From Acinetobacter phage Phab24: a stretch of DNA of 64,000 nucleotides. The position numbers and the translations under genes are program-made. The notes beneath the pieces are model-generated. The model ran no database searches. It was not told the DNA's origin and saw only the letters and a list, made by a program, of their open reading frames with translations. Positions 16,733 to 42,799 of the stretch are shown here, piece after piece (position 1 is the stretch's first letter; each line of letters opens with the position of its first letter). The stretch lies in sequence record MZ477002.1; one strand, given 5' to 3'.

Positions 16733-18262
16733 TTATGACATCTTTAATAGTTTTGCATTTACTTGTGGAAGTTCTTTCTTGGTAGCTAGAATATTGAAGC
16801 AAGCAGAAACACTATCGACCTGATCATCCTTTTTCTGCCCACTACTTCTCTTATTATCAAAAGATTCGAGTTCGTTGAATAAGTCTAAATTCCATGTATT
16901 ATCTTTAACAACTTCAACAAGACCATTCTCTGACGATGCTGCAAAAGGTTCGAAGTTAGACAACTTTCCTTTACTACTACTTGTCTTGTAAAAATAAATT
17001 GGTGTTTGTTGTTCAGCAAATAATTTTGACCAATATTTTCTAGCTAATTGACCAGCAGAAGCAGGGTCTTGTGGTAAGTAAGCTTTATACTTAGAACCGT
17101 AAAGTTCTCTGTCTTTCTTGACAATATCTCTCACAGCATATTCAACTTCACCAGCTCGTTTTCTAAATCTCTCTACATGCTCAATAATATATCTACCATC
17201 TTTTGTCTTAGCCATTAAGACACCAACTGTGTAGTCTGGATTAGGATAAGATTCACTAGGAACTGAAGATGCTAAGTCAAAACAACGCACACGACTGTCA
17301 ATAATACTCTCTGGAACACTGTTAATTAAAGGAGTCCATTCTCTTTTAAAATAACCACCATCTTCTTCACGAGCAAACCATGATCCAAATAGCATCCTTT
17401 CTTTTTCTACACGACTCAAGTTTTGGAGTTTTTGAATATAGGCTGGATCGGCTTGCAATAACGGTGGATTGTCATAACACGTAGCACCAATAAATTGAAA
17501 TTTCATTGGTTGACATAAAGACTTACCTGTTATTGGATGATTCCCATAAAGGTGTTTATATTCATTAAAAAGTTCTTCGTAGGTATTTGCCCATTTATAA
17601 TCATTTCCTATTTTTAGGAAATACCTGTAATCTCCATTTCGCTCAGGTATTGGTCTACCACCAACATTTACACCATCAATGATTGTGTTTTCTGGATATA
17701 AATAATAATCCCTAATCCAATCTAGGATAAAAGAATCTGGATCAGGGTTACACGTCAACCAAATACTAGGTTTCATTGGAGTCCCATCTAGTTCCTTAGA
17801 TAATGTACGCAAACCTTGAATAATCCATTCAACTTCATCTAAAGATAGATGCGTAGCTTCATCCACCATTGCTGCTGAAATTTGCTTACCTTGAAGAGCG
17901 TTCTTACCAGCTTGACCATCTAAACCAATGAAGTTGAAGTTTGCTCCGTGTCGTCTTTTATCACCACTCGGATGAGGAAACTTAATTTGCATCGGTTGTC
18001 GAGTAAATTGAACTCTCGAATCATACCTTGTAAACATGTTCACAGCTTCGTCAAAAGCACCACCACCACCTTTTAAGTCTGTGGCGTTTTTACGGATAAC
18101 ATAAGCGTTGAAGTTTGGGTCATGTGTCCATCTAAGGAATCTCATGAGAGAGGTGAAAGTTTTCCCACTACCTCTCGCTCCACCATAAACGATAACATCA
18201 GCGTCAGATGTTACAAACATTTCTTGTTTTTTACTGGCTGGTCTTAGGATAAAATCTTCCAA
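16733..18262 (-). CDS. terL: Terminase large subunit
   Basis: Walker A VIVYGGARGSGKTF near the N-terminus, 509 aa, immediately upstream of the portal. Confidence 0.85.
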   Translation of the reverse strand: MEDFILRPASKKQEMFVTSDADVIVYGGARGSGKTFTSLMRFLRWTHDPNFNAYVIRKNATDLKGGGGAFDEAVNMFTRYDSRVQFTRQPMQIKFPHPSGDKRRHGANFNFIGLDGQAGKNALQGKQISAAMVDEATHLSLDEVEWIIQGLRTLSKELDGTPMKPSIWLTCNPDPDSFILDWIRDYYLYPENTIIDGVNVGGRPIPERNGDYRYFLKIGNDYKWANTYEELFNEYKHLYGNHPITGKSLCQPMKFQFIGATCYDNPPLLQADPAYIQKLQNLSRVEKERMLFGSWFAREEDGGYFKREWTPLINSVPESIIDSRVRCFDLASSVPSESYPNPDYTVGVLMAKTKDGRYIIEHVERFRKRAGEVEYAVRDIVKKDRELYGSKYKAYLPQDPASAGQLARKYWSKLFAEQQTPIYFYKTSSSKGKLSNFEPFAASSENGLVEVVKDNTWNLDLFNELESFDNKRSSGQKKDDQVDSVSACFNILATKKELPQVNAKLLKMS

Positions 18263-34693: not shown

Positions 34694-34772
34694 TGGGGCT
34701 TTTTTATAACCATTACTTGCTATAATCAATCAAATGTTTTATTCTTATACATAACACAAGGAGTATTAAATA

Positions 34773-35000
34773 ATGCTACATATAGTTTCAGATCATATAA
34801 TGATACCATCCTCCTATTATCTTGTACATAACAGTGAGGAAATGTGTGTTATCTATCATGGGGGTATTTTCTATATCACACATTATACGTTTGGTGTTTA
34901 TATGGAAATAGTTGGTATATTTGTATATGGGTGGCAAGTTATGCAAGCTTGGGATAAATTCTACAGCTCTGAAGATTTTGGGAAAAATTTTTGGAAGTAG
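34773..35000 (+). CDS. Hypothetical small protein
   Basis: 75-aa ORF, last plus-strand gene before the convergent non-coding region. Confidence 0.4.
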   Translation: MLHIVSDHIMIPSSYYLVHNSEEMCVIYHGGIFYITHYTFGVYMEIVGIFVYGWQVMQAWDKFYSSEDFGKNFWK

Positions 35001-35545
35001 GTTTTTAGAATTGGGGGTGGGGGTGTTATAGTTGGAAAATATCTGTTGTGTTTAGGAGGGGTGAGAGATACTTATCAAGAAGAGGGATGATTTTACAATT
35101 TATGTGTTAGATCATCTATATACTTTAGTGCTTAACACCTTCCGACCGCCCTCAATAATTAAGCCTTTCATATTTTAAAATATCCTATAATATCGCTTCA
35201 AAGATTAATGACTTTAATTTCACATTGCCCGTGTATCCCATGCACGGGTAGATAGGTAAGCACATAAGCTTTTAATCTTTGTTTATATCTTTTGTCAGAA
35301 ACATTCTTCTTTAGCTTTTTTATTCTTACATGTGGGGTGTTGGTTTAATTCTTTAACGATTTAAATTTAAATAACAGTGTTAAACTTTAATCTCTATTTA
35401 TTAACATTCTTTTATTTGCTCATATAGAGCTATTACAGCAATGTTTACCAATTAAGGTAGGATAGTACAGCTATATCCAATTAAAGCTTAATAAAGCTTG
35501 TATACGGCGCTATAATGCCATGTTATTTGATCTATTCTCTATTAC

Positions 35546-35582
35546 TTTTCTTTAGACAATAAAAAGCCCGCATATAGCGGGC
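35546..35582 (-). terminator. Rho-independent terminator (potentially bidirectional)
   Basis: GCCCGC-ATATA-GCGGGC hairpin flanked by AAAAA on the plus strand and ATTATTT on the other side. On the minus strand it follows the stop of ORF 35600..35836. Confidence 0.6.
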
Positions 35583-35599
35583 ATTATTTAGAGTAGGGA

Positions 35600-35836
35600 T
35601 TAGTTAGGGGTTAAGACTACAGAACCTCCTTTTTTGTCTACTCCATGACATTGGAACTCTACGTTGGATTTAGAGCTTATTTGATCTTGAATCTCTAGCA
35701 TCATCGCAATGCAATCATCTTGTTTCATGTTACGTTTCATTTCTATTTTATCAATGACTCGTGGATAATAATTTTTAGCTACTGGTGTTTGTGTAGGCGA
35801 ATAGATAACTAAAACTAAAGCATATAATATATTCAT
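35600..35836 (-). CDS. Secreted/membrane small protein
   Basis: 78 aa with an N-terminal hydrophobic signal-like segment (MNILYALVLVIYSP). Confidence 0.45.
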   Translation of the reverse strand: MNILYALVLVIYSPTQTPVAKNYYPRVIDKIEMKRNMKQDDCIAMMLEIQDQISSKSNVEFQCHGVDKKGGSVVLTPN

Positions 35837-35838
35837 GT

Positions 35839-36057
35839 TTACACCCCTTGTGAGTAAAGTTGGTTTAATAATTCCTGATTATGATTGATCTTTCGACCTG
35901 ATTTAATCACTTGTTTGGTGAAGAACAAGGACCAACCTTTGTATGTTGCATAACGTTCTACTGTTAAGAAGTCGTTGTAATACTCTACATAAGCTTCATT
36001 CAATTCAATAGCTAACTGTTTTTGATTGATCATGTTCATACTCCTTATGAAAACCAT
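35839..36057 (-). CDS. Hypothetical small protein
   Basis: 72-aa ORF. Confidence 0.4.
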   Translation of the reverse strand: MVFIRSMNMINQKQLAIELNEAYVEYYNDFLTVERYATYKGWSLFFTKQVIKSGRKINHNQELLNQLYSQGV

Positions 36058-36305
36058 ATTAAAATTAAATCATCGTAACGTATTAAGTCACGCTCTAATA
36101 TTTCTTTCACACTGCGCAAATCATATCTGTTGACATGATGTAGAAAACTTTCTAAACGGTTTTGTACTTGAATCATTTCATCAATATCAGAACGTAATTC
36201 AAATTTTCGACTAATTGTGCCATTATGACTTGTAAAGCGTAATTCTAATTTCATAGTATTGCCTTTGAGTTTTATCACTTCAATAAATTCATTATACAGA
36301 AACAA
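36045..36305 (-). CDS. Hypothetical small protein
   Basis: 86-aa ORF. Confidence 0.45.
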   Translation of the reverse strand: MFLYNEFIEVIKLKGNTMKLELRFTSHNGTISRKFELRSDIDEMIQVQNRLESFLHHVNRYDLRSVKEILERDLIRYDDLILIWFS

Positions 36306-36370
36306 AAAAAAGGATGCAATCCTATTTTTAATTATTTTTAGACAATAAAAAGCGCCAATTAAGGCGCTGC
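36306..36370 (-). terminator. Tandem rho-independent terminators
   Basis: AGCGCC-AATTAA-GGCGCT and AGGAT-GCA-ATCCT hairpins, each followed on the minus strand by a T-run. The context TTTAGACAATAAAAAGC is shared with the 35546 terminator. Confidence 0.55.
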
Positions 36371-36388
36371 AAGGTAAAGCTAGATAAG

Positions 36389-36619
36389 CTAACTTTTAAC
36401 AATATTGATTTTAGCTAACATACTGTAAGCAGGAACATCACACAATAGAAATTGCTTATGCCCCTGAGATAACATTTCAATGAATGATTCATCACATGGC
36501 TTATAGCTTTTAATCACTTTCATGTTATTGACTTTATGAGCACATATTGATGTTTTGCCTGATATAGGGCATTTGTAACGGTTAATAATTAACATTGTGT
36601 TATACCTCCTTTCAAGCAT
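36389..36619 (-). CDS. Cys-rich small protein
   Basis: 76 aa containing C..C....C......C. Confidence 0.4.
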   Translation of the reverse strand: MLERRYNTMLIINRYKCPISGKTSICAHKVNNMKVIKSYKPCDESFIEMLSQGHKQFLLCDVPAYSMLAKINIVKS

Positions 36620-36893
36620 AAATACGTTGTAACCAGATCATAACATCATTACTGTTTTCTTTAATATCTAAATGCAACATAAAGAAATCATTTAATAAAT
36701 CTTCAAAAGGTGTATCATAATCATACAACGCTTCATAGAACTCAACATCTTGTCTAAATGTGTAAATGTCCCTGTCATCTAACTCATCATTAACGGCAAT
36801 AATGTCATTAATATTACGTAATGCTATCATTTTCCAGCGTTCTGTTTGATTAACAGATAAATAGTCAATAATTTCTTGCTTAGATAATTTCAT
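36612..36893 (-). CDS. Hypothetical acidic protein
   Basis: 93-aa ORF. Confidence 0.45.
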   Translation of the reverse strand: MKLSKQEIIDYLSVNQTERWKMIALRNINDIIAVNDELDDRDIYTFRQDVEFYEALYDYDTPFEDLLNDFFMLHLDIKENSNDVMIWLQRIYA

Positions 36894-36920
36894 GATGTAT
36901 TACTCCGATTAAACTTTATT

Positions 36921-37076
36921 AAACTTGTCGTTCAATTCTTTAGCTTTTAGTTCAGCTTTGGCTTTCGTTGATTCCACATAATATGTTCTAAAAGCTTTAG
37001 ACTTAACTCGCCACACTTTTTTATTGGCTTTATTACTAAATCCTCTTTCAACATACCATAATTTAATATAGCTCAT
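36921..37076 (-). CDS. Small basic protein (about 51 aa, below the ORF-track cutoff)
   Basis: Hand translation gives MSYIKLWYVERGFSNKANKKVWRVKSKAFRTYYVESTKAKAELKAKELNDKFNKV. Confidence 0.3.
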
Positions 37077-37095
37077 TGTCTTAAATCCTATTTTA

Positions 37096-37299
37096 TCAAT
37101 TTAAATCTAAAGTTAAAAAATCAGAAGAAACTAATATTTCAGCACCACTTAACAGTTTTATCACAAAGTAGTTTGGTTCAAATGTTTTTCGCAAAATAAT
37201 AGCCTTGTGATCTAAACGTTTAAAATCTTTTGGTACACCTTTATAAATAACTTTATTGCCAACTTTATACATTTTTAAATACCTAAAATAAAGATTCAT
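37096..37299 (-). CDS. Hypothetical small protein
   Basis: 67-aa ORF. Confidence 0.4.
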   Translation of the reverse strand: MNLYFRYLKMYKVGNKVIYKGVPKDFKRLDHKAIILRKTFEPNYFVIKLLSGAEILVSSDFLTLDLN

Positions 37300-37474
37300 T
37301 TAATATTGTGCATCATACTGTTATTAATACAATGCACGTTTGCTCAGTGTTGCTTAGTCAATAAAACGTATATTTTGTCCCAGTTTAAAAGCTTGTTCTA
37401 AAGCTTCACCAACACTTTTTACGTATATCACTTGATAGTTTTCTAATGTAACTTTTAACATGTTGTTTATCCTT

Positions 37475-37843
37475 TTAAAGAGCTTGTAAAAACTTATATG
37501 AGCCGTACTTATTCCAAGCACTAAAATCATGATTCACATAACACAAAGCTTTTAGAAAATCTAAGTCTTGAACGTTTAATTTGTCATTACCTAAATTCTG
37601 CTTAACATATACATCAGCAGCTTTTTGCACTGCAACACTAAGTTTATTAAAACCGCAACCGCTTACACTAACTTGAACCATTTCTGAACCATGTAAGTGT
37701 AAATACAAGTATAATTTACCCATACCGTCTTTAGGGTACTTAACAGTCATAGTGCCTTTTTGATCGCCTTCATTGTCAATGATCACATATGCAGACACTT
37801 GATCGAAATGTTTAGAATGTTTGTCGTATACTGAAGTAGTCAT
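37475..37843 (-). CDS. Hypothetical protein, first gene of the minus-strand island
   Basis: 122-aa ORF with 500 bp of non-coding DNA upstream. Confidence 0.5.
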   Translation of the reverse strand: MTTSVYDKHSKHFDQVSAYVIIDNEGDQKGTMTVKYPKDGMGKLYLYLHLHGSEMVQVSVSGCGFNKLSVAVQKAADVYVKQNLGNDKLNVQDLDFLKALCYVNHDFSAWNKYGSYKFLQAL

Positions 37844-38365
37844 AATCTTTCCTTTAAGCTGTTAGCTTGTTTCGTTTCGATGAGTTCATAATAACAAATT
37901 TTAGAATCATTGCAAGCACTTTTTTCAAATAATTTTAAAATAATACTAAAAATAATCATAAATACATGAAAATAAAGTGAATTTAATTAGTTATTTTATT
38001 AAATCTTTTATTAGTAGCTTTGGAAAATCATTTATTTAGGTGAATTAAGCGCCGTCTTTTATCATTACTAGCAAGGAAACAAAGGATATTCACCAATGGA
38101 AAGGTTGAGATACACCCTTTCATCTTTCGTATAAATAGAAACGCGTGTGAATAACATAGAAATAATTGTAAATCAATAAAAATTACATTTCTTTACCTTT
38201 CATTCTACATAAAAATAATGTATTATATCGATAAAACCCGATATGATTTTTCACTCACCAGTATTTTCAAAATAAATTGCAAAATTCTCTAAAAATTTTT
38301 CACGCAGGCTCGTGCGAGAGGGTAATCGTTCTTTCTATAAAACAAATATAAATTCTTATATAAGA

Positions 38366-38659
38366 TTATATAAAACTAATCAAACTAAATAGTAAAATTA
38401 ACCATATAGTACACACAAACAAGGTAAAACTAACTACAATTACACCAATACTTTCTACGATATTAGGTGGTCTATAGTCCCATAGAAGGTTAACACCAAT
38501 AAAACATAAAGATAAAATACAACAAACCACGACAAATGCTGTAAATGCTCCAAACAATTCCACAATAATCTCCATAATTACTAGTTTAAGAAGAGGGAGG
38601 GGTGCCATCAAAAAGTAACGGCATTTTGTTTTACAAATCAAGAATATCATATACTGCAC
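38366..38659 (-). CDS. Small integral membrane protein
   Basis: 97 aa with 2-3 hydrophobic helices. Overlaps the upstream gene by 13 nt. Confidence 0.5.
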   Translation of the reverse strand: MQYMIFLICKTKCRYFLMAPLPLLKLVIMEIIVELFGAFTAFVVVCCILSLCFIGVNLLWDYRPPNIVESIGVIVVSFTLFVCTIWLILLFSLISFI

Positions 38660-39207
38660 GATTCAATCATTGCAGTTGCAACCCTATCATCTAGTCTGTG
38701 TTGGTACTTCTCAATCAATTGATTAACATACACTAATCTTTCAACCAAATAAACTTGATGAGCTTCCTCAACACTATCAAAATAACCTAAATGAATATGT
38801 TTTCCAAATTTACTAATAGCAGACTTAAACTTCTTCTTTCTTTTTTCTTTAAATACACCTTCGGGAAGGTCATGTTTAAAACTTCGTCTAAACATATTAT
38901 TTATTTCAGCAGGTACAAAAACACAAACATCTTCTGAATAAATAGTTCCATCACCAACAATGTCTTTATCAATAGCCCATAACCTACCACAAGGTTCTAA
39001 ATTTAAGAAACCTTTTTGTTGTTTAGCCCAATCTAAATACCAATCGTAATTCTTAAAGTTATCACTAACACTTACACCATCGTAATGTTTATCACTTTTA
39101 ACACGGTTAATCATCCCTGTCCACTGAGTATATTCTTTTCTTATAACTTTAACACCATCTACAACTTCACTAATTGGATTTTTCCATCTATTCCACTTAC
39201 CGCCCAT
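38647..39207 (-). CDS. Homing-endonuclease-like protein with an AP2-type DNA-binding domain (paralog 1)
   Basis: Conserved W..M..R...........Y.GV.VS.....Y.....W, then DKD..G.G..YS.D.C.F.P, then GKHI.LGYFDSVEEA. Shared with ORFs 51533..52114 and 56500..57012. Confidence 0.5.
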   Translation of the reverse strand: MGGKWNRWKNPISEVVDGVKVIRKEYTQWTGMINRVKSDKHYDGVSVSDNFKNYDWYLDWAKQQKGFLNLEPCGRLWAIDKDIVGDGTIYSEDVCVFVPAEINNMFRRSFKHDLPEGVFKEKRKKKFKSAISKFGKHIHLGYFDSVEEAHQVYLVERLVYVNQLIEKYQHRLDDRVATAMIESCSI

Positions 39208-40074
39208 TTTAACTCCTCATATAAAATAACACTTATCCATTATAACATATATTGTTCGCTAAGAACAATGGATATTCACATAAGTTCATATACAAATACA
39301 CATAAGATTAAAAGCAAAAGCATCTACGCTATCGCTAGATAGACACAGAAAAGCAAAAAGAAAAAGCAAAAACTATATTGTTGGTGACAACAATGGATAA
39401 ACACTATAGTCATATATAAGTACACATACAGTTATTCGTAGAATAAAGCAATAGCTATAGATTAAGAAAACAACAGATAATTGTAATTGTAAATTACATA
39501 GTAACCCTAATTAATAACGATTAGTTATTAGTAGAATTACAAAATATAACAAATTTTATTTGTTGACATATATTCTTGTAAGGTGATTAACATTCTCATT
39601 CCATTCCAATGTAATCCCCATTCCAAGTTATCACTCTTTTTAACTATGTTCTTTTGTTGTGTAAATTCTTTACACCTATTGGTTTTACTATGTTCTAACG
39701 AACATTAGTGCATTGTTGTTATACATATGATGTTATATATTTATATATGATCTTAACGATCATGATGTTAGTGATATGCATATGTTGTACACCACAACAT
39801 AATAACATTTATATTACATTGTCTCTTATTCTTCTATATTGTTGTTTTATGTGTATTTAACACTAGCAACCAATACAATAGTTATAGTAAGGATTTATTC
39901 ACTGTAATATATTAGTTACACAAAACATACAATTAAGAGTAGAGAATATAACCATAACCTTACTATCTCAAATCAATACAAACAGTAGGAATACTAACAA
40001 TTATACTATAAATATACTGCTACTATTTTTATGAGAATTTACCTATATAATATAGGGATTTTTCCCAAATTTAG

Positions 40075-40103
40075 TTGCATTTACTACAAAAACGTGTTAT
40101 AGT
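40075..40103 (+). promoter_or_regulatory. Sigma70-like promoter for the 40121 operon
   Basis: TTGCAT, 17-nt spacer, TATAGT. Confidence 0.5.
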
Positions 40104-40120
40104 CCACTTACTGATTAGTT

Positions 40121-42004
40121 TTGCAGGTGGTTATTACAGTGTTAGAAAAAGAGGAATTATCAAGTAAACTTGTTGTTAATACAGGTGGTGTTGTTGCTGA
40201 AAGTGTTTTAAATATTAAAGCACCTTACAGTAGACTTAGTGATGTAATGGATGATTTACCTGATAATGTTTATTTAAACAAGACAACTACAGGTTGTGGT
40301 GCTACTCACCTATGTCTTACCAACAGTGTAAATTATGTTGTATTAGTACCATACATTTCACTAATTAACAATAAAAAGAAAGATAAGAGTATTAAGAACC
40401 TATTCCCTGTCTTCGGTAATGTTTCCGTAGAGCAGATTGTTTGTTATTTAAATGAAAATCACAATGGTGTGTCTAAGATTATATCAACGTATGATAGTTT
40501 TCATAAAGTAGTTAGAGCGCTAGATATAGTTGACCGTATTAAAGAATTTAAAGTATGTCTTGATGAAGCACATTCACTGATATCCTTGTCAAAAATTAAA
40601 GGTAAAGTGTTTAACTATTTCTATAATCATTTTAGGAGATTTAAGAGTTTTGTTTTTGTTACTGCTACTCCTAACGATGCTGACTTATTGCCTAGTAATT
40701 TAAGTGACGTTCCGTTTGTTAGAGTTGTTTGGGAGAACTCTGTGTTAGTTAATATTAAGGAAAAACACACAGAAACATTAGCGGATTGCAACAAGTTAGT
40801 GGTTGAAGTTTGCAAACAGCATCTACTTGGTGAAGTGGATGGTAATGCTTATATATTCTATAATAGCGTACAAGAGATCGTTAGTGTCATTAAAAAGTTA
40901 AAGAAGCTCGATGGTTTTTCTGCTGAGAATGTTAACATCTTTTGTGCGTCAACAGATAGAAATAATCACAAGATTGCAAATCAGTTAGGTGTTAGATTTC
41001 TAAAAGGTGAACTTGAAGACAATAAAAAGATCAACTTCCTAACCTCTACTACATATGAGGGTTGTGATATCAACGATCCTAATGGGAGAACTTACATCGT
41101 TGTTTCATCTAAGCGGGATAGCACAGCTCTAACAAACCACATTCTTGTTCCTCAGATTTGTGGGAGGTTACGTAACAGTAAATATAAGAAGGAAGCTGTA
41201 ATGTTTGTTTGTGGTTTTAATAATGACATTTACACTCAAGGTAAGAGTCATTTCTTAAAGAAGCTAGAGGAAATGAAAGCTAAGGCTATTTACGACATAC
41301 AAAGAGCAATAAAAGCCAAAGAAGATGGTTATGAAGATTTATTTAAAGAGGATATGGAGAGGTTTGCATCATCTCCTTTTATTACTGAGGATGAACAAGG
41401 ACTACCTGTGTTAAATGAGGATGCAACAAAGCTTGAGGAGCAAACATATAGAGCGTTCAATCAGCACTGCATTACTGTTGAAAGTGGGTATGAGGTTGCT
41501 AACACAGTTAGAACGTATGATCAAGATATGTTTAGTATGAGTGATCTAACGAAACTGTTGATTGATAAAAAGGTTGATTATAGCAGATTAATGAAGCAGT
41601 ACATTAAAGCTTTAAGTCTTAATGATACAGAAACTATAAAAACAATTGAGGATTATAGTGAAGAACACAAAAGACACGTAAATGTTCTTGGTGTAGATAA
41701 GATTAAGTCCATCGGAATCAATAAGACAAAAATCTCCAATGCTTATCAATTACAATTGAAGTTTAATGAAAATAACTTCAAAATTAAAAGTCAATTGTCA
41801 GGAATAAAGATCGGGGAAAGGTACACTTTATTAGAGGTCACAGATTTGTTGCAGAAAGCTTACAGTAATCTTAATATTCCAAAGAAAGCAAAGAGTACAG
41901 ACATTAAGAACTTCTTTTCCGTTAAAGATGTTTTCTTAACAAGAAATAACAAACGAAGCAAAGGTTATTTGATACTAGACGACCTTTATAAAGAAATTGT
42001 GTAA
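40121..42004 (+). CDS. Large ATPase/helicase-like protein with a DEAH-type motif and an atypical P-loop
   Basis: NKTTTGCGATHL is Walker-A-like but lacks the Lys. VCLDEAHSL is a DEAH box. Start may be TTG at 40121 or GTG at 40138. Confidence 0.4.
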   Translation: MQVVITVLEKEELSSKLVVNTGGVVAESVLNIKAPYSRLSDVMDDLPDNVYLNKTTTGCGATHLCLTNSVNYVVLVPYISLINNKKKDKSIKNLFPVFGNVSVEQIVCYLNENHNGVSKIISTYDSFHKVVRALDIVDRIKEFKVCLDEAHSLISLSKIKGKVFNYFYNHFRRFKSFVFVTATPNDADLLPSNLSDVPFVRVVWENSVLVNIKEKHTETLADCNKLVVEVCKQHLLGEVDGNAYIFYNSVQEIVSVIKKLKKLDGFSAENVNIFCASTDRNNHKIANQLGVRFLKGELEDNKKINFLTSTTYEGCDINDPNGRTYIVVSSKRDSTALTNHILVPQICGRLRNSKYKKEAVMFVCGFNNDIYTQGKSHFLKKLEEMKAKAIYDIQRAIKAKEDGYEDLFKEDMERFASSPFITEDEQGLPVLNEDATKLEEQTYRAFNQHCITVESGYEVANTVRTYDQDMFSMSDLTKLLIDKKVDYSRLMKQYIKALSLNDTETIKTIEDYSEEHKRHVNVLGVDKIKSIGINKTKISNAYQLQLKFNENNFKIKSQLSGIKIGERYTLLEVTDLLQKAYSNLNIPKKAKSTDIKNFFSVKDVFLTRNNKRSKGYLILDDLYKEIV

Positions 42005-42028: not shown

Positions 42029-42799
42029 ATGAATAAAGAAGTCTATATTGTTTACGGAGTAAATGACGAAGTTCTGTATGTCGGAAAAGGTGCTTCTGGT
42101 CGAAGTACACATGCTACGAGTGGTGTTAGTCACAACAGAGAGTTAAATAAATACCTCATCGAGAAAGGTAAGGATAATATGTTTGTAAAAATATTACATA
42201 ATAACTTACGTGATTTCGATGCGACATATATTGAAAAGCTACTAATACAAAAACTCCAACCGAAGTTCAACAAAACTCTAAAAGAGAACACATACCTTAA
42301 ACACAATCTTTTTAATGGTAGTGTGTACAAGGATAAGTTAAGAGAAGAGGTTAGTATTCAATACTCACAATTCAAAACCGTTAGTGATAAGGTAATGAAT
42401 TTAGTTAAGAATAAATTACCTCATGACTACGAATTTATCATGAAGTATGGTTTTGACCTTTATGAAAGCCTTCCTGATAAGTGTTATTGTCGGTCTCTTT
42501 TGCTTTCAAACCTTCGTATTAATATTCACCTTCAAAATGTAGAGTGTTTTCATAAAGAGTTAGGTATCAAAGTACACGATATTCTACCCGATAACTTTTT
42601 ATCTGAGGGTGTGTTGAGTTACTTTGAAAAATGGTATATACCATTTAAGTTTTATCACGTAGATAGAATCGTAAAAAGCTCATTTGTAATAGATAACTCG
42701 ACAGGCGTAAATATCGTTTTAAAACGGAAGTTTGATTGCACTGAATCAGCTAAAGATTTTATGAAGAGTCCTGATTTAATAAGTGTGATGCAAGAATGA
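42029..42799 (+). CDS. GIY-YIG homing endonuclease
   Basis: VYIVYGVNDEVLYVGKGASGRSTH......N..L is the canonical GIY-(10)-YVG..R..H motif. The C-terminal region is basic and DNA-binding-like. Confidence 0.75.
   Translation: MNKEVYIVYGVNDEVLYVGKGASGRSTHATSGVSHNRELNKYLIEKGKDNMFVKILHNNLRDFDATYIEKLLIQKLQPKFNKTLKENTYLKHNLFNGSVYKDKLREEVSIQYSQFKTVSDKVMNLVKNKLPHDYEFIMKYGFDLYESLPDKCYCRSLLLSNLRINIHLQNVECFHKELGIKVHDILPDNFLSEGVLSYFEKWYIPFKFYHVDRIVKSSFVIDNSTGVNIVLKRKFDCTESAKDFMKSPDLISVMQE

Follow-up and report, generated by a model that had tools for sequence, protein, structure and literature searches.

The gap and its elements

Positions 39208-40120 of Acinetobacter phage Phab24 (MZ477002.1), within the 64,000 nucleotides analysed here and called the window, form a long gap between a leftward cluster of small genes and a rightward helicase-like gene. 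The original prediction, made from the sequence alone, described this gap as a likely replication origin or major regulatory switch. Here, the elements of the gap are compared with those of related phages, in four of which the same position carries the inner border of a direct terminal repeat (DTR).

The window comes from the ~94-kb genome of an Acinetobacter myovirus in the BS46/Phab24/B9 group. Phage BS46 is the only DNA-level match of the region (88% identity with gaps counted, 94.1% over 697 aligned columns); the Phab24 announcement also gives BS46 as the nearest relative, and the 22 kb around the region match it at 92% identity over 53% of their length. The group also has more distant members, namely B9, TaPaz, Ab3, Ab5/Ab7, phiAB441 and MD-2021a, and relatives outside Acinetobacter are Edwardsiella phage ET-ABTNL-9 and Psychrobacter phage D'Alembert. 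The region is non-coding, unusually long, conserved and flanked by divergent transcription units, as had been proposed, and each small open reading frame (ORF) is broken in BS46 by stops or by indels of 20 or 11 nt. Hidden genes were rejected, as the overlapping ORFs of 33-85 aa are all disrupted in BS46. ARAGORN found no tRNA in the region, and Rfam 15 gave no match inside it at E<=1, the lone match at that threshold being a chance-level L10 leader at 40363-40434. The elements within the gap are listed from left to right.

39244-39312, plus strand: repeat unit R1, holding palindrome 1 and then TGGATA; kept in BS46
39251-39269: palindrome 1, ATTGTTC-GCTAA-GAACAAT, from the hairpin scan
39309-39372, plus strand: A-rich block with five copies of AAAGCA (0.17 expected) and a small palindrome, CTATC-GCTA-GATAG
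39370-39438, plus strand: repeat unit R2, holding palindrome 2 and then TGGATA
39377-39394: palindrome 2, ATTGTTG-GTGA-CAACAAT, with a 4-nt loop
39432-39446, 39482-39498, 39512-39530 and 39548-39564: four more perfect hairpins, on the DTR side; the last is AACAAAT-TTT-ATTTGTT
39457-39577: AT-rich terminal block, 19% GC, ending at the inferred border
39597-39625, plus strand: three CATTCCA repeats
39659-39675, 39690-39705, 39747-39763 and 39781-39801: four perfect hairpins, on the unique side
39722-39790: four ATATGWTSTTA-like direct repeats, interleaved with the unique-side hairpins
39894-39940, plus strand: island B, a cross-clade block ending in TACAATTAAG, with the candidate -10 hexamer TACAAT

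Ten perfect hairpins (stem 6-8, loop 3-5) lie within 39251-39801, about 550 bp. The expectation from the region's own dinucleotide transition frequencies is 1.96 +/- 1.4, none of 1000 generated sequences reached ten, and the hairpin density is that of the top 700-bp stretch in the 64-kb window. Two palindromes of identical design had been noted earlier; both are present and share their design, each followed by TGGATA, but the loop of the second has 4 nt rather than 5, the coordinates shift slightly and the count of two was too low. Their centres are separated by 126 bp, and AACAATGGATA, which follows both (39264-39274 and 39389-39399), has its sole two exact copies in 64 kb there. The two palindromes are the cores of a tandem unit of about 70 bp and not isolated operators; R1 and R2 are identical at 53 of 72 positions, a score that none of 2000 shuffles equalled. 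The R1/R2 core recurs once more in part, as GTGAATATCCTTTGTT, on the minus strand at about 38073-38093, within a second gene-free gap described below.

The AT-rich terminal block is the third most AT-rich 120-bp stretch in the window. To its right, the predicted CATTCCA repeats were found at 39597, 39602 and 39619, on the same strand within 29 nt (chance about 5e-5 anywhere in the window). The reiterated AT-rich motif was also recovered, with ATGATGTTA at 39727 and 39762 as two exact copies among the four looser ATATGWTSTTA-like ones, and so was the GATC-TTAAC-GATC element, which stands among the unique-side hairpins; GATCTTAACGATC is located at 39749. Between the window and BS46, the hairpins carry 4 substitutions against 10.4 expected (P=0.012), and this deficit relative to the surroundings, seen in a single close relative, suggests constraint. 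A dispersed regulatory motif was considered and rejected, given that elsewhere in the window neither AACAATGGATA nor the palindrome pattern nor TAAGGTGATTAACA exceeds chance.

Terminal repeats in related phages

Perfect DTRs of 3.9-5.7 kb are present in four deposited records from three sources, namely B9, Ab3, Ab5 and D'Alembert. The end duplication is 3,864 bp in Ab5 and 4,915 bp in B9, each with 0 mismatches, 3,972 bp in Ab3 (0 mismatches in the 1,914 bp compared) and 5,719 bp as annotated in D'Alembert (0 mismatches in the 3,848 bp compared). The D'Alembert repeat was called from reads by PhageTerm after the Illumina assembly had collapsed it (PMC9331655), and among the DTR relatives PhageTerm evidence is available for D'Alembert only.

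The inner border of the DTR falls within the gap in 4/4 of these relatives, at or within the junction of (C/G)TAAGGTGAT with TAAC or its D'Alembert counterpart, the positions being <=10 nt apart. In Ab3 and Ab5 the border separates ...GTTGTATTTATTT(G/T)T from CTAAGGTGATTAAC, and in B9 it separates ...CTAAGGTGAT from TAACAC. In D'Alembert it separates ...TTTATTTGTTGACTATATATTTTTAATATGCC from TAACAA, with ATATGCC directly before and TAACA directly after it, and its gap corresponds to that of the window, with small leftward genes on one side and, on the other, a homologue of the window helicase-like protein. The best local alignment of the window gap with the D'Alembert gap (44/58 identical) contains the D'Alembert border and takes in the hairpin AACAAAT-TTT-ATTTGTT plus TTGAC, which the window has in common with D'Alembert, right beside the DTR border of the latter.

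The gap is a stable feature of the group. A gene-free gap of 0.9-1.35 kb occupies the same position in BS46, B9, Ab5, Ab3, TaPaz, MD-2021a and D'Alembert, adjoining the leftward small-gene cluster. Overall gap identity within the B9 clade is 75-84%, with an AT-rich block of about 120 bp ending in CTAAGGTGATTAAC conserved at 95-99% in six phages (flanks about 75-80%) and a block of about 60 bp ending in TACAATTAG conserved at 90-96%. Between the window/BS46 clade and the B9 clade, only three short islands are held in common: the leader to the left of the HNH insertion described below, island A and island B. The inner DTR borders of Ab3, Ab5 and B9 are located at island A. In island A, AGGTGATTAAC is invariant in 8/8 aligned genomes and the 75 nt upstream align gap-free; TAAGGTGATTAACA has no second copy with <2 mismatches in the window. 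Reading island A as a sigma-70 promoter (TTGACA...TAAGGTGATTAAC) was rejected, the sole fit needing a 19-nt spacer and the -10 being lost in B9 and D'Alembert. Homology to the relatives ends within a few bases after island B, which is a candidate for a conserved rightward promoter with a weak -35; in Ab3 and MD-2021a, which lack a rightward gene here, the sequence diverges from inside TACAAT.

The short repeats behave differently from the borders. They are kept only in the nearest relative, BS46, and in the B9 clade 10-11 same-strand CACTA copies stand where the window has CATTCCA (P about 4e-9). With CACTA in place of CATTCCA in the B9 clade, the idea that minus-strand GGA motifs of the CATTCCA repeats act as a CsrA sponge was dropped.

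The window genome is mosaic. TerL (window 16733-18262) is 98.6% identical to that of Ab3, 58% to that of B9, 49% to that of D'Alembert and only about 50% to that of BS46, while the early region (30000-52000) is BS46-like at 92% and hardly matches Ab3. Despite this mosaicism, the terminal-repeat border motif is the same across every terminase variant. The border pattern, run against IMG/VR and JGI metagenomes, returned nothing or chance matches only, and protein-anchored IMG/VR scans for further relatives returned nothing; a single ENA contig of 1.1 kb is B9-like and ends before reaching the border.

A probable terminal repeat in the window genome

The elements of the gap, their departure from chance, their conservation and the DTR borders of the relatives are observations; taken together, they point to the gap as the junction of a DTR of about 4.4 kb with the unique genome, holding the DNA end and the cutting signal, a reading to which we assign a probability of roughly 0.7. 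The window genome would thus share the DTR of its relatives, with a single, collapsed copy visible in the window. A terminal-repeat border could not have been seen from the sequence of the window alone, and it is this border that the relatives conserve best. The predicted repeat and its borders are as follows.

35144-39577: inferred DTR with Ab3/Ab5-type borders, 4,434 bp including the HNH insertion, carrying the leftward small genes
35134-39587: inferred DTR with B9-type borders
39578-39591, plus strand: right-border motif GTAAGGTGATTAAC, cross-clade and unique in the window
35132-35143, minus strand: left-border motif TTAACACCTTCC, which repeats the right-border motif in inverted orientation
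Either border of the inferred repeat: AAGGTGATTAA

Both DTR borders of Ab5, Ab3 and B9 align to these window positions. The transferred inner junction falls between 39577 and 39578 (Ab3/Ab5 type) or between 39587 and 39588 (B9/D'Alembert type), and the Ab3-type border is preferred because of the 98.6% identity between the TerL of the window and that of Ab3. At about 35133-35144, in a second long gene-free stretch, the window aligns with the outer ends of the Ab3, Ab5 and B9 repeats. There, the reverse complement of TTAACACCTTCC is GGAAGGTGTTAA, a one-gap copy of GTAAGGTGATTAAC; the chance of an inverted copy within +/-20 nt of the predicted left border is about 2e-4. The left border holds the window's only AAGGTGTTAA, and each border has the sole copy of its core in 64 kb. 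The gene-free region around the predicted left border is convergent and 1.1 kb long (34694-35838), and includes a bidirectional terminator-like hairpin, GCCCGC-ATATA-GCGGGC, at 35566-35582.

Under the best reading, the gap would consist of four parts. The segment 39208-39577 would be the untranslated inner end of the DTR, with R1/R2, the AAAGCA block and six hairpins, and in the virion these last ~370 bp would form the extreme right end of the packaged DNA. The cut zone would be 39578-39591. A repeat- and palindrome-rich flank on the unique side would span 39592-39940, and 39941-40120 would be a leader specific to this lineage, holding the promoter of the helicase-like operon.

A possible sequence of events can be proposed. 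Replicative concatemers would carry one copy of the repeat per genome. Terminase, or a partner nuclease, would recognise the two inverted motifs (at the right border, GTAAGGTGAT followed by TAAC), and a cut or nick would be made at both repeat borders. Strand-displacement synthesis would next copy the repeat, which is the assumption made for T7, T5 and K-like phages. R1/R2, the 10 palindromes and the short direct repeats to either side of the border would be cis elements, candidate binding or structural sites that probably act in packaging, end handling or DNA entry and in the control of divergent early promoters. Both the identity of the cutter and the role of the palindromes are what we infer from this arrangement.

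Several observations weigh against a terminal-repeat junction. The deposited borders of B9 and of Ab3/Ab5 are offset by exactly 10 nt at both ends, and no paper was found in the literature on how the Ab3/Ab5 termini were set. The inverted-motif relation is good in the window and BS46, weak in B9, Ab3 and Ab5, and was not seen in D'Alembert. BS46 was published as linear (94,068 bp) and Phab24 as circular, with a DTR mentioned for neither. Further, high hairpin density is common to BS46, B9 and Ab5 but not to Ab3, MD-2021a and TaPaz, and the hairpins can therefore not all be essential for a family-wide function.

The BS46, TaPaz and Phab24 papers are silent on the region and on terminal repeats. 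The deposited B9 repeats reach exactly 10 nt beyond those of Ab3 and Ab5 at each end, the extra segments being CTAAGGTGAT and AATACCAAGC (L019/L020 against L015/L016/L018). The offset may stem from staggered cuts, from differing methods of end calling or from another terminase variant.

Neighbouring genes and the ancestral gap

The features beside the gap are listed below.

38576-38646, minus strand: left remnant of the ancestral gap, comprising the leader and promoter-like region of a 69-aa membrane-protein gene
38611-38583, minus strand: promoter-like site TTGATG-17-TAAACT, in the leader of the 69-aa gene
38647-39207, minus strand: HNH homing-endonuclease gene (PHROG 953 'HNH endonuclease', E 1e-42)
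39239-39268, minus strand: sigma-70-like promoter site of the HNH gene, TTGTTC-18-(TGT)TATAAT, 9.55 bits by position weight matrix (PWM)
39941-40138, plus strand: leader of the helicase-like operon, not alignable to BS46, with a promoter-like site at 40075-40103

The HNH gene is a lineage-specific insertion of 595 bp, in which window positions 38649-39243 stand in place of about 108 bp of BS46, and BS46 has no HNH gene at this site. Because this insertion splits off a left remnant, the ancestral gap is larger than the region considered above, and ran from about 38576 to 40138, matching the 1.24-kb gaps of BS46 and B9. The remnant at 38576-38646 is 82% identical to B9 gap positions 7-88 and BS46 positions 47-85, and window positions 38570-38651, left of the HNH gene, align with the left ends of the B9 and BS46 gaps. 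The 69-aa membrane-protein gene (38366-38575) has a product 98% identical to Phab24_id068. It has the homologues BS46 gp139, B9 AB9_157 and Phab24_id068, is over-called by the mechanical 97-aa ORF 38366-38659, and stands alone between two long gene-free gaps. In the B9 record, a terminator is annotated just 3' of the homologue of this gene.

The other of these gaps, about 520 bp at 37844-38365, lies inside the inferred repeat. No other 120 bp of the window are as AT-rich as its positions 37919-38038 (13% GC), and it has a DnaA box of consensus type, TTATTCACA, at 38146-38154 (minus strand). In phiAB441, the sequence of 37927-37989 is duplicated in tandem.

The first rightward gene, 40121-42004, encodes a DEAD-like-helicase-type protein that is 50% identical to an ET-ABTNL-9 protein and 29% identical to D'Alembert DAL_143. 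The proteins of the relatives align only from residue 21-27 of the 627-aa ORF, and the true start is probably the GTG at 40139, after the Shine-Dalgarno sequence AGGTGG. BS46 has two unrelated ORFs in place of this gene. B9 AB9_155, in which a weak GIY-YIG/homing-endonuclease signal is present, shares its C-terminus with the last ~140 residues of the helicase-like protein. Further right, a 256-aa ORF (42029-42799) has an N-terminal GIY-YIG-like motif (YIVYGV...LYVGKG) by eye and no Pfam or PHROG match under the thresholds applied. This ORF may encode another free-standing homing endonuclease, the second one next to the helicase-like gene.

Alternative explanations

A replication origin was one of the two identities offered in the original prediction, which is partly supported in that this is a long, conserved, cis-acting non-coding region. 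The three CATTCCA and four ATATGATGTTA-like repeats would serve as iterons for a phage initiator, the AT-rich block as an unwinding element, and the product of the adjacent helicase-like gene would load there. Clustered same-strand repeats fit this, as do the very AT-rich, low-stability DNA at 39457-39576 and 39954-40053 and the helicase-type genes that adjoin the gap in the window, D'Alembert, Ab3 and MD-2021a. The repeats of both clades also lie at the same place though their sequences differ, as expected for iterons co-evolving with an initiator. However, the region 39208-40120 has no DnaA box (TTATCCACA) at <=1 mismatch, and no initiator candidate was found, the flanking proteins having no informative Pfam match and PHROG matches only to unknown function or homing endonuclease. 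BS46 shares the repeats, yet its first right-hand gene differs, and the best-conserved elements coincide with the DTR borders rather than with the repeats. The GC-skew inflection proposed as a check is present at about 39.5 kb, but it is one of four flips in the window (about 20, 35, 39.5 and 53.5 kb) that coincide with strand switches and track gene orientation, so that it says nothing on an origin. AT-richness and short repeats are the only positive support for an origin function. We consider it rather unlikely as an explanation of the gap, and it could coexist with the terminal-repeat junction, on the unique side (about 350 bp).

The gap could also serve early transcription control only, with divergent host-type promoters and a dimeric phage protein bound to the palindromes as operators; this appears improbable. 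Genes diverge from the gap, and promoter-like sites occur on both strands. On the right, the predicted sigma70-like promoter is plausible (TTGCAT-17-(TGT)TATAGT at 40075-40103, 10.3 bits), ranks 28 among all sigma-70-like sites in the window by PWM and is a better promoter-like site than island B. On the left, the HNH promoter-like site takes its -35 hexamer and its spacer from palindrome 1, and its -10 lies in insertion-specific sequence. Three palindromes (39253, 39379 and 39691) fit TGTTS-N3-6-SAACA (P about 1e-4), and two more (39747-39763 and 39781-39801) have similar ATG-type arms by eye. The remaining palindromes, on the other hand, have unrelated arms, sigma-70-like sites are fewer than in shuffles (8 vs 14.1), and no repressor-like gene is adjacent. 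Ab3 and MD-2021a keep the gap although their right side is not divergent. The most conserved sequence, AGGTGATTAAC with the AT-rich block, is unlike a promoter in any relative, and a pure promoter/operator reading explains little of it. The earlier suggestion that the palindromes are operators for the HNH-AP2 protein is contradicted by BS46, which keeps both palindromes without its gene, and the HNH-AP2 protein is for this reason not a dedicated binder. Nor does the gap resemble a lambdoid-type switch, in which operators sharing one half-site lie beside the gene of their binder, as 3/10 palindromes fit the pattern, with two more similar by eye, and no regulator gene adjoins them.

A more specific version of the terminal-repeat reading combines staggered cuts 10 nt apart in the inverted border motif with a palindrome-rich end of the repeat that would pause DNA entry, as has been proposed for T5. 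Staggered cuts of this kind would account for the 10-nt offset of the deposited repeats, and in such staged entry the small repeat genes would be expressed first. Infection would then proceed in two steps, T5-like, in an Acinetobacter myovirus that is unrelated to T5 and without DnaA boxes; the combination is quite doubtful.

Structured non-coding RNA transcribed from the gap, with the hairpins as RNA stems, is very improbable: both halves of the gap fold better than shuffles (z -2.4 to -3.2), the stems are conserved relative to their flanks between the window and BS46, and a B9-clade hairpin keeps its pairing through altered arms (CTAAGAC/GTCTTAG vs CTGATC/GATCAG), but the z-scores are equal on both strands, as DNA palindromes would give, neither an Rfam match nor an intrinsic terminator was found inside the region, BS46 has indels of 21, 20 and 11 nt, and one close relative is too few for covariation in this clade. 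A strand-specific RNA structure was rejected, both strands folding equally well. The fully changed arms of the B9-clade hairpin (L002 2231-2248, L004 1580-1594, L007 1518-1533 and L008 1373-1390) point to selection on structure rather than sequence. In the window, the counterpart of this stretch has been replaced by the HNH insertion.

Implications

If the terminal-repeat junction is correct, the architecture of the BS46- and Phab24-like genomes, which are studied therapeutically, needs to be corrected. The packaged DNA would be about 98 kb with fixed ends, as opposed to 94 kb that is linear without repeats or circular as described, and each gene in the repeat, the HNH endonuclease included, would be present twice. 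The border motif would provide a precise cut-site motif for a terminase lineage without a characterised packaging signal, and the region would have to be kept intact in phage engineering. A general caution follows for genome annotation. AT-rich, repeat-rich gaps in assemblies are easily mistaken for origins and may be collapsed terminal-repeat junctions.

Comparison with known terminal-repeat systems

The DTRs of B9, Ab3, Ab5 and D'Alembert are close parallels, with a homologous position, the same border motif and terminases that are 49-98.6% identical. In contrast to them, the window phage and BS46 have no repeat in their deposited or published descriptions, and the window clade differs in its palindromes and repeats and by the HNH insertion. 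In T7, Dunn and Studier are said to have described in 1983 short-repeat arrays that flank the 160-bp terminal repeat, together with a model of concatemer processing. Reportedly, then, T7 likewise has same-strand short repeats right beside a fixed terminal-repeat border, and duplication of the repeat is presumed to take place as concatemers are processed; the T7 repeat is short and the sequences are unrelated, so T7 is a lead only.

Outside the group, the inverted repeats of K-like phages and Repeat Region 3 of T5 are the nearest analogues. In Staphylococcus K-like (Twort-like) phages, 12-bp inverted repeats part the terminal repeats from the unique DNA (PMC6022877). The window resembles them in a multi-kb DTR with small early genes and in a short conserved motif inverted at both borders. 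The motif itself differs (AAGGTG(A)TTAA in the window vs TAAGTACCTGGG), the window copies are imperfect, with a 1-nt indel, B9-clade phages show the inverted relation weakly, and the phage families are not related.

Repeat Region 3 of T5 is a large stretch of untranslated DNA where the left terminal repeat ends on its inner side, and has been proposed to contain the injection stop signal (Davison, bioRxiv 10.1101/866236). T5 is a coliphage siphovirus with a 10-kb repeat, against 4.4 kb in the Acinetobacter myovirus, and the two are likened by architecture, not by sequence. The hallmark of the T5 region is its paired DnaA boxes, and because these are absent from 39208-40120 of the window at <=1 mismatch, the region is not filed as a member of the T5 system. 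The architectural likeness is nevertheless broad. In T5, about 1.2 kb of untranslated DNA lies mostly in a long terminal repeat with small early genes and runs into unique DNA, has dense palindromes with direct and inverted repeats, and is better conserved than many of the repeat ORFs, and in some members HNH endonuclease genes are inserted among the repeat regions. The window shares the T5-type trait of about 1 kb of untranslated, palindrome- and repeat-rich DNA that straddles the inferred inner end of the repeat.

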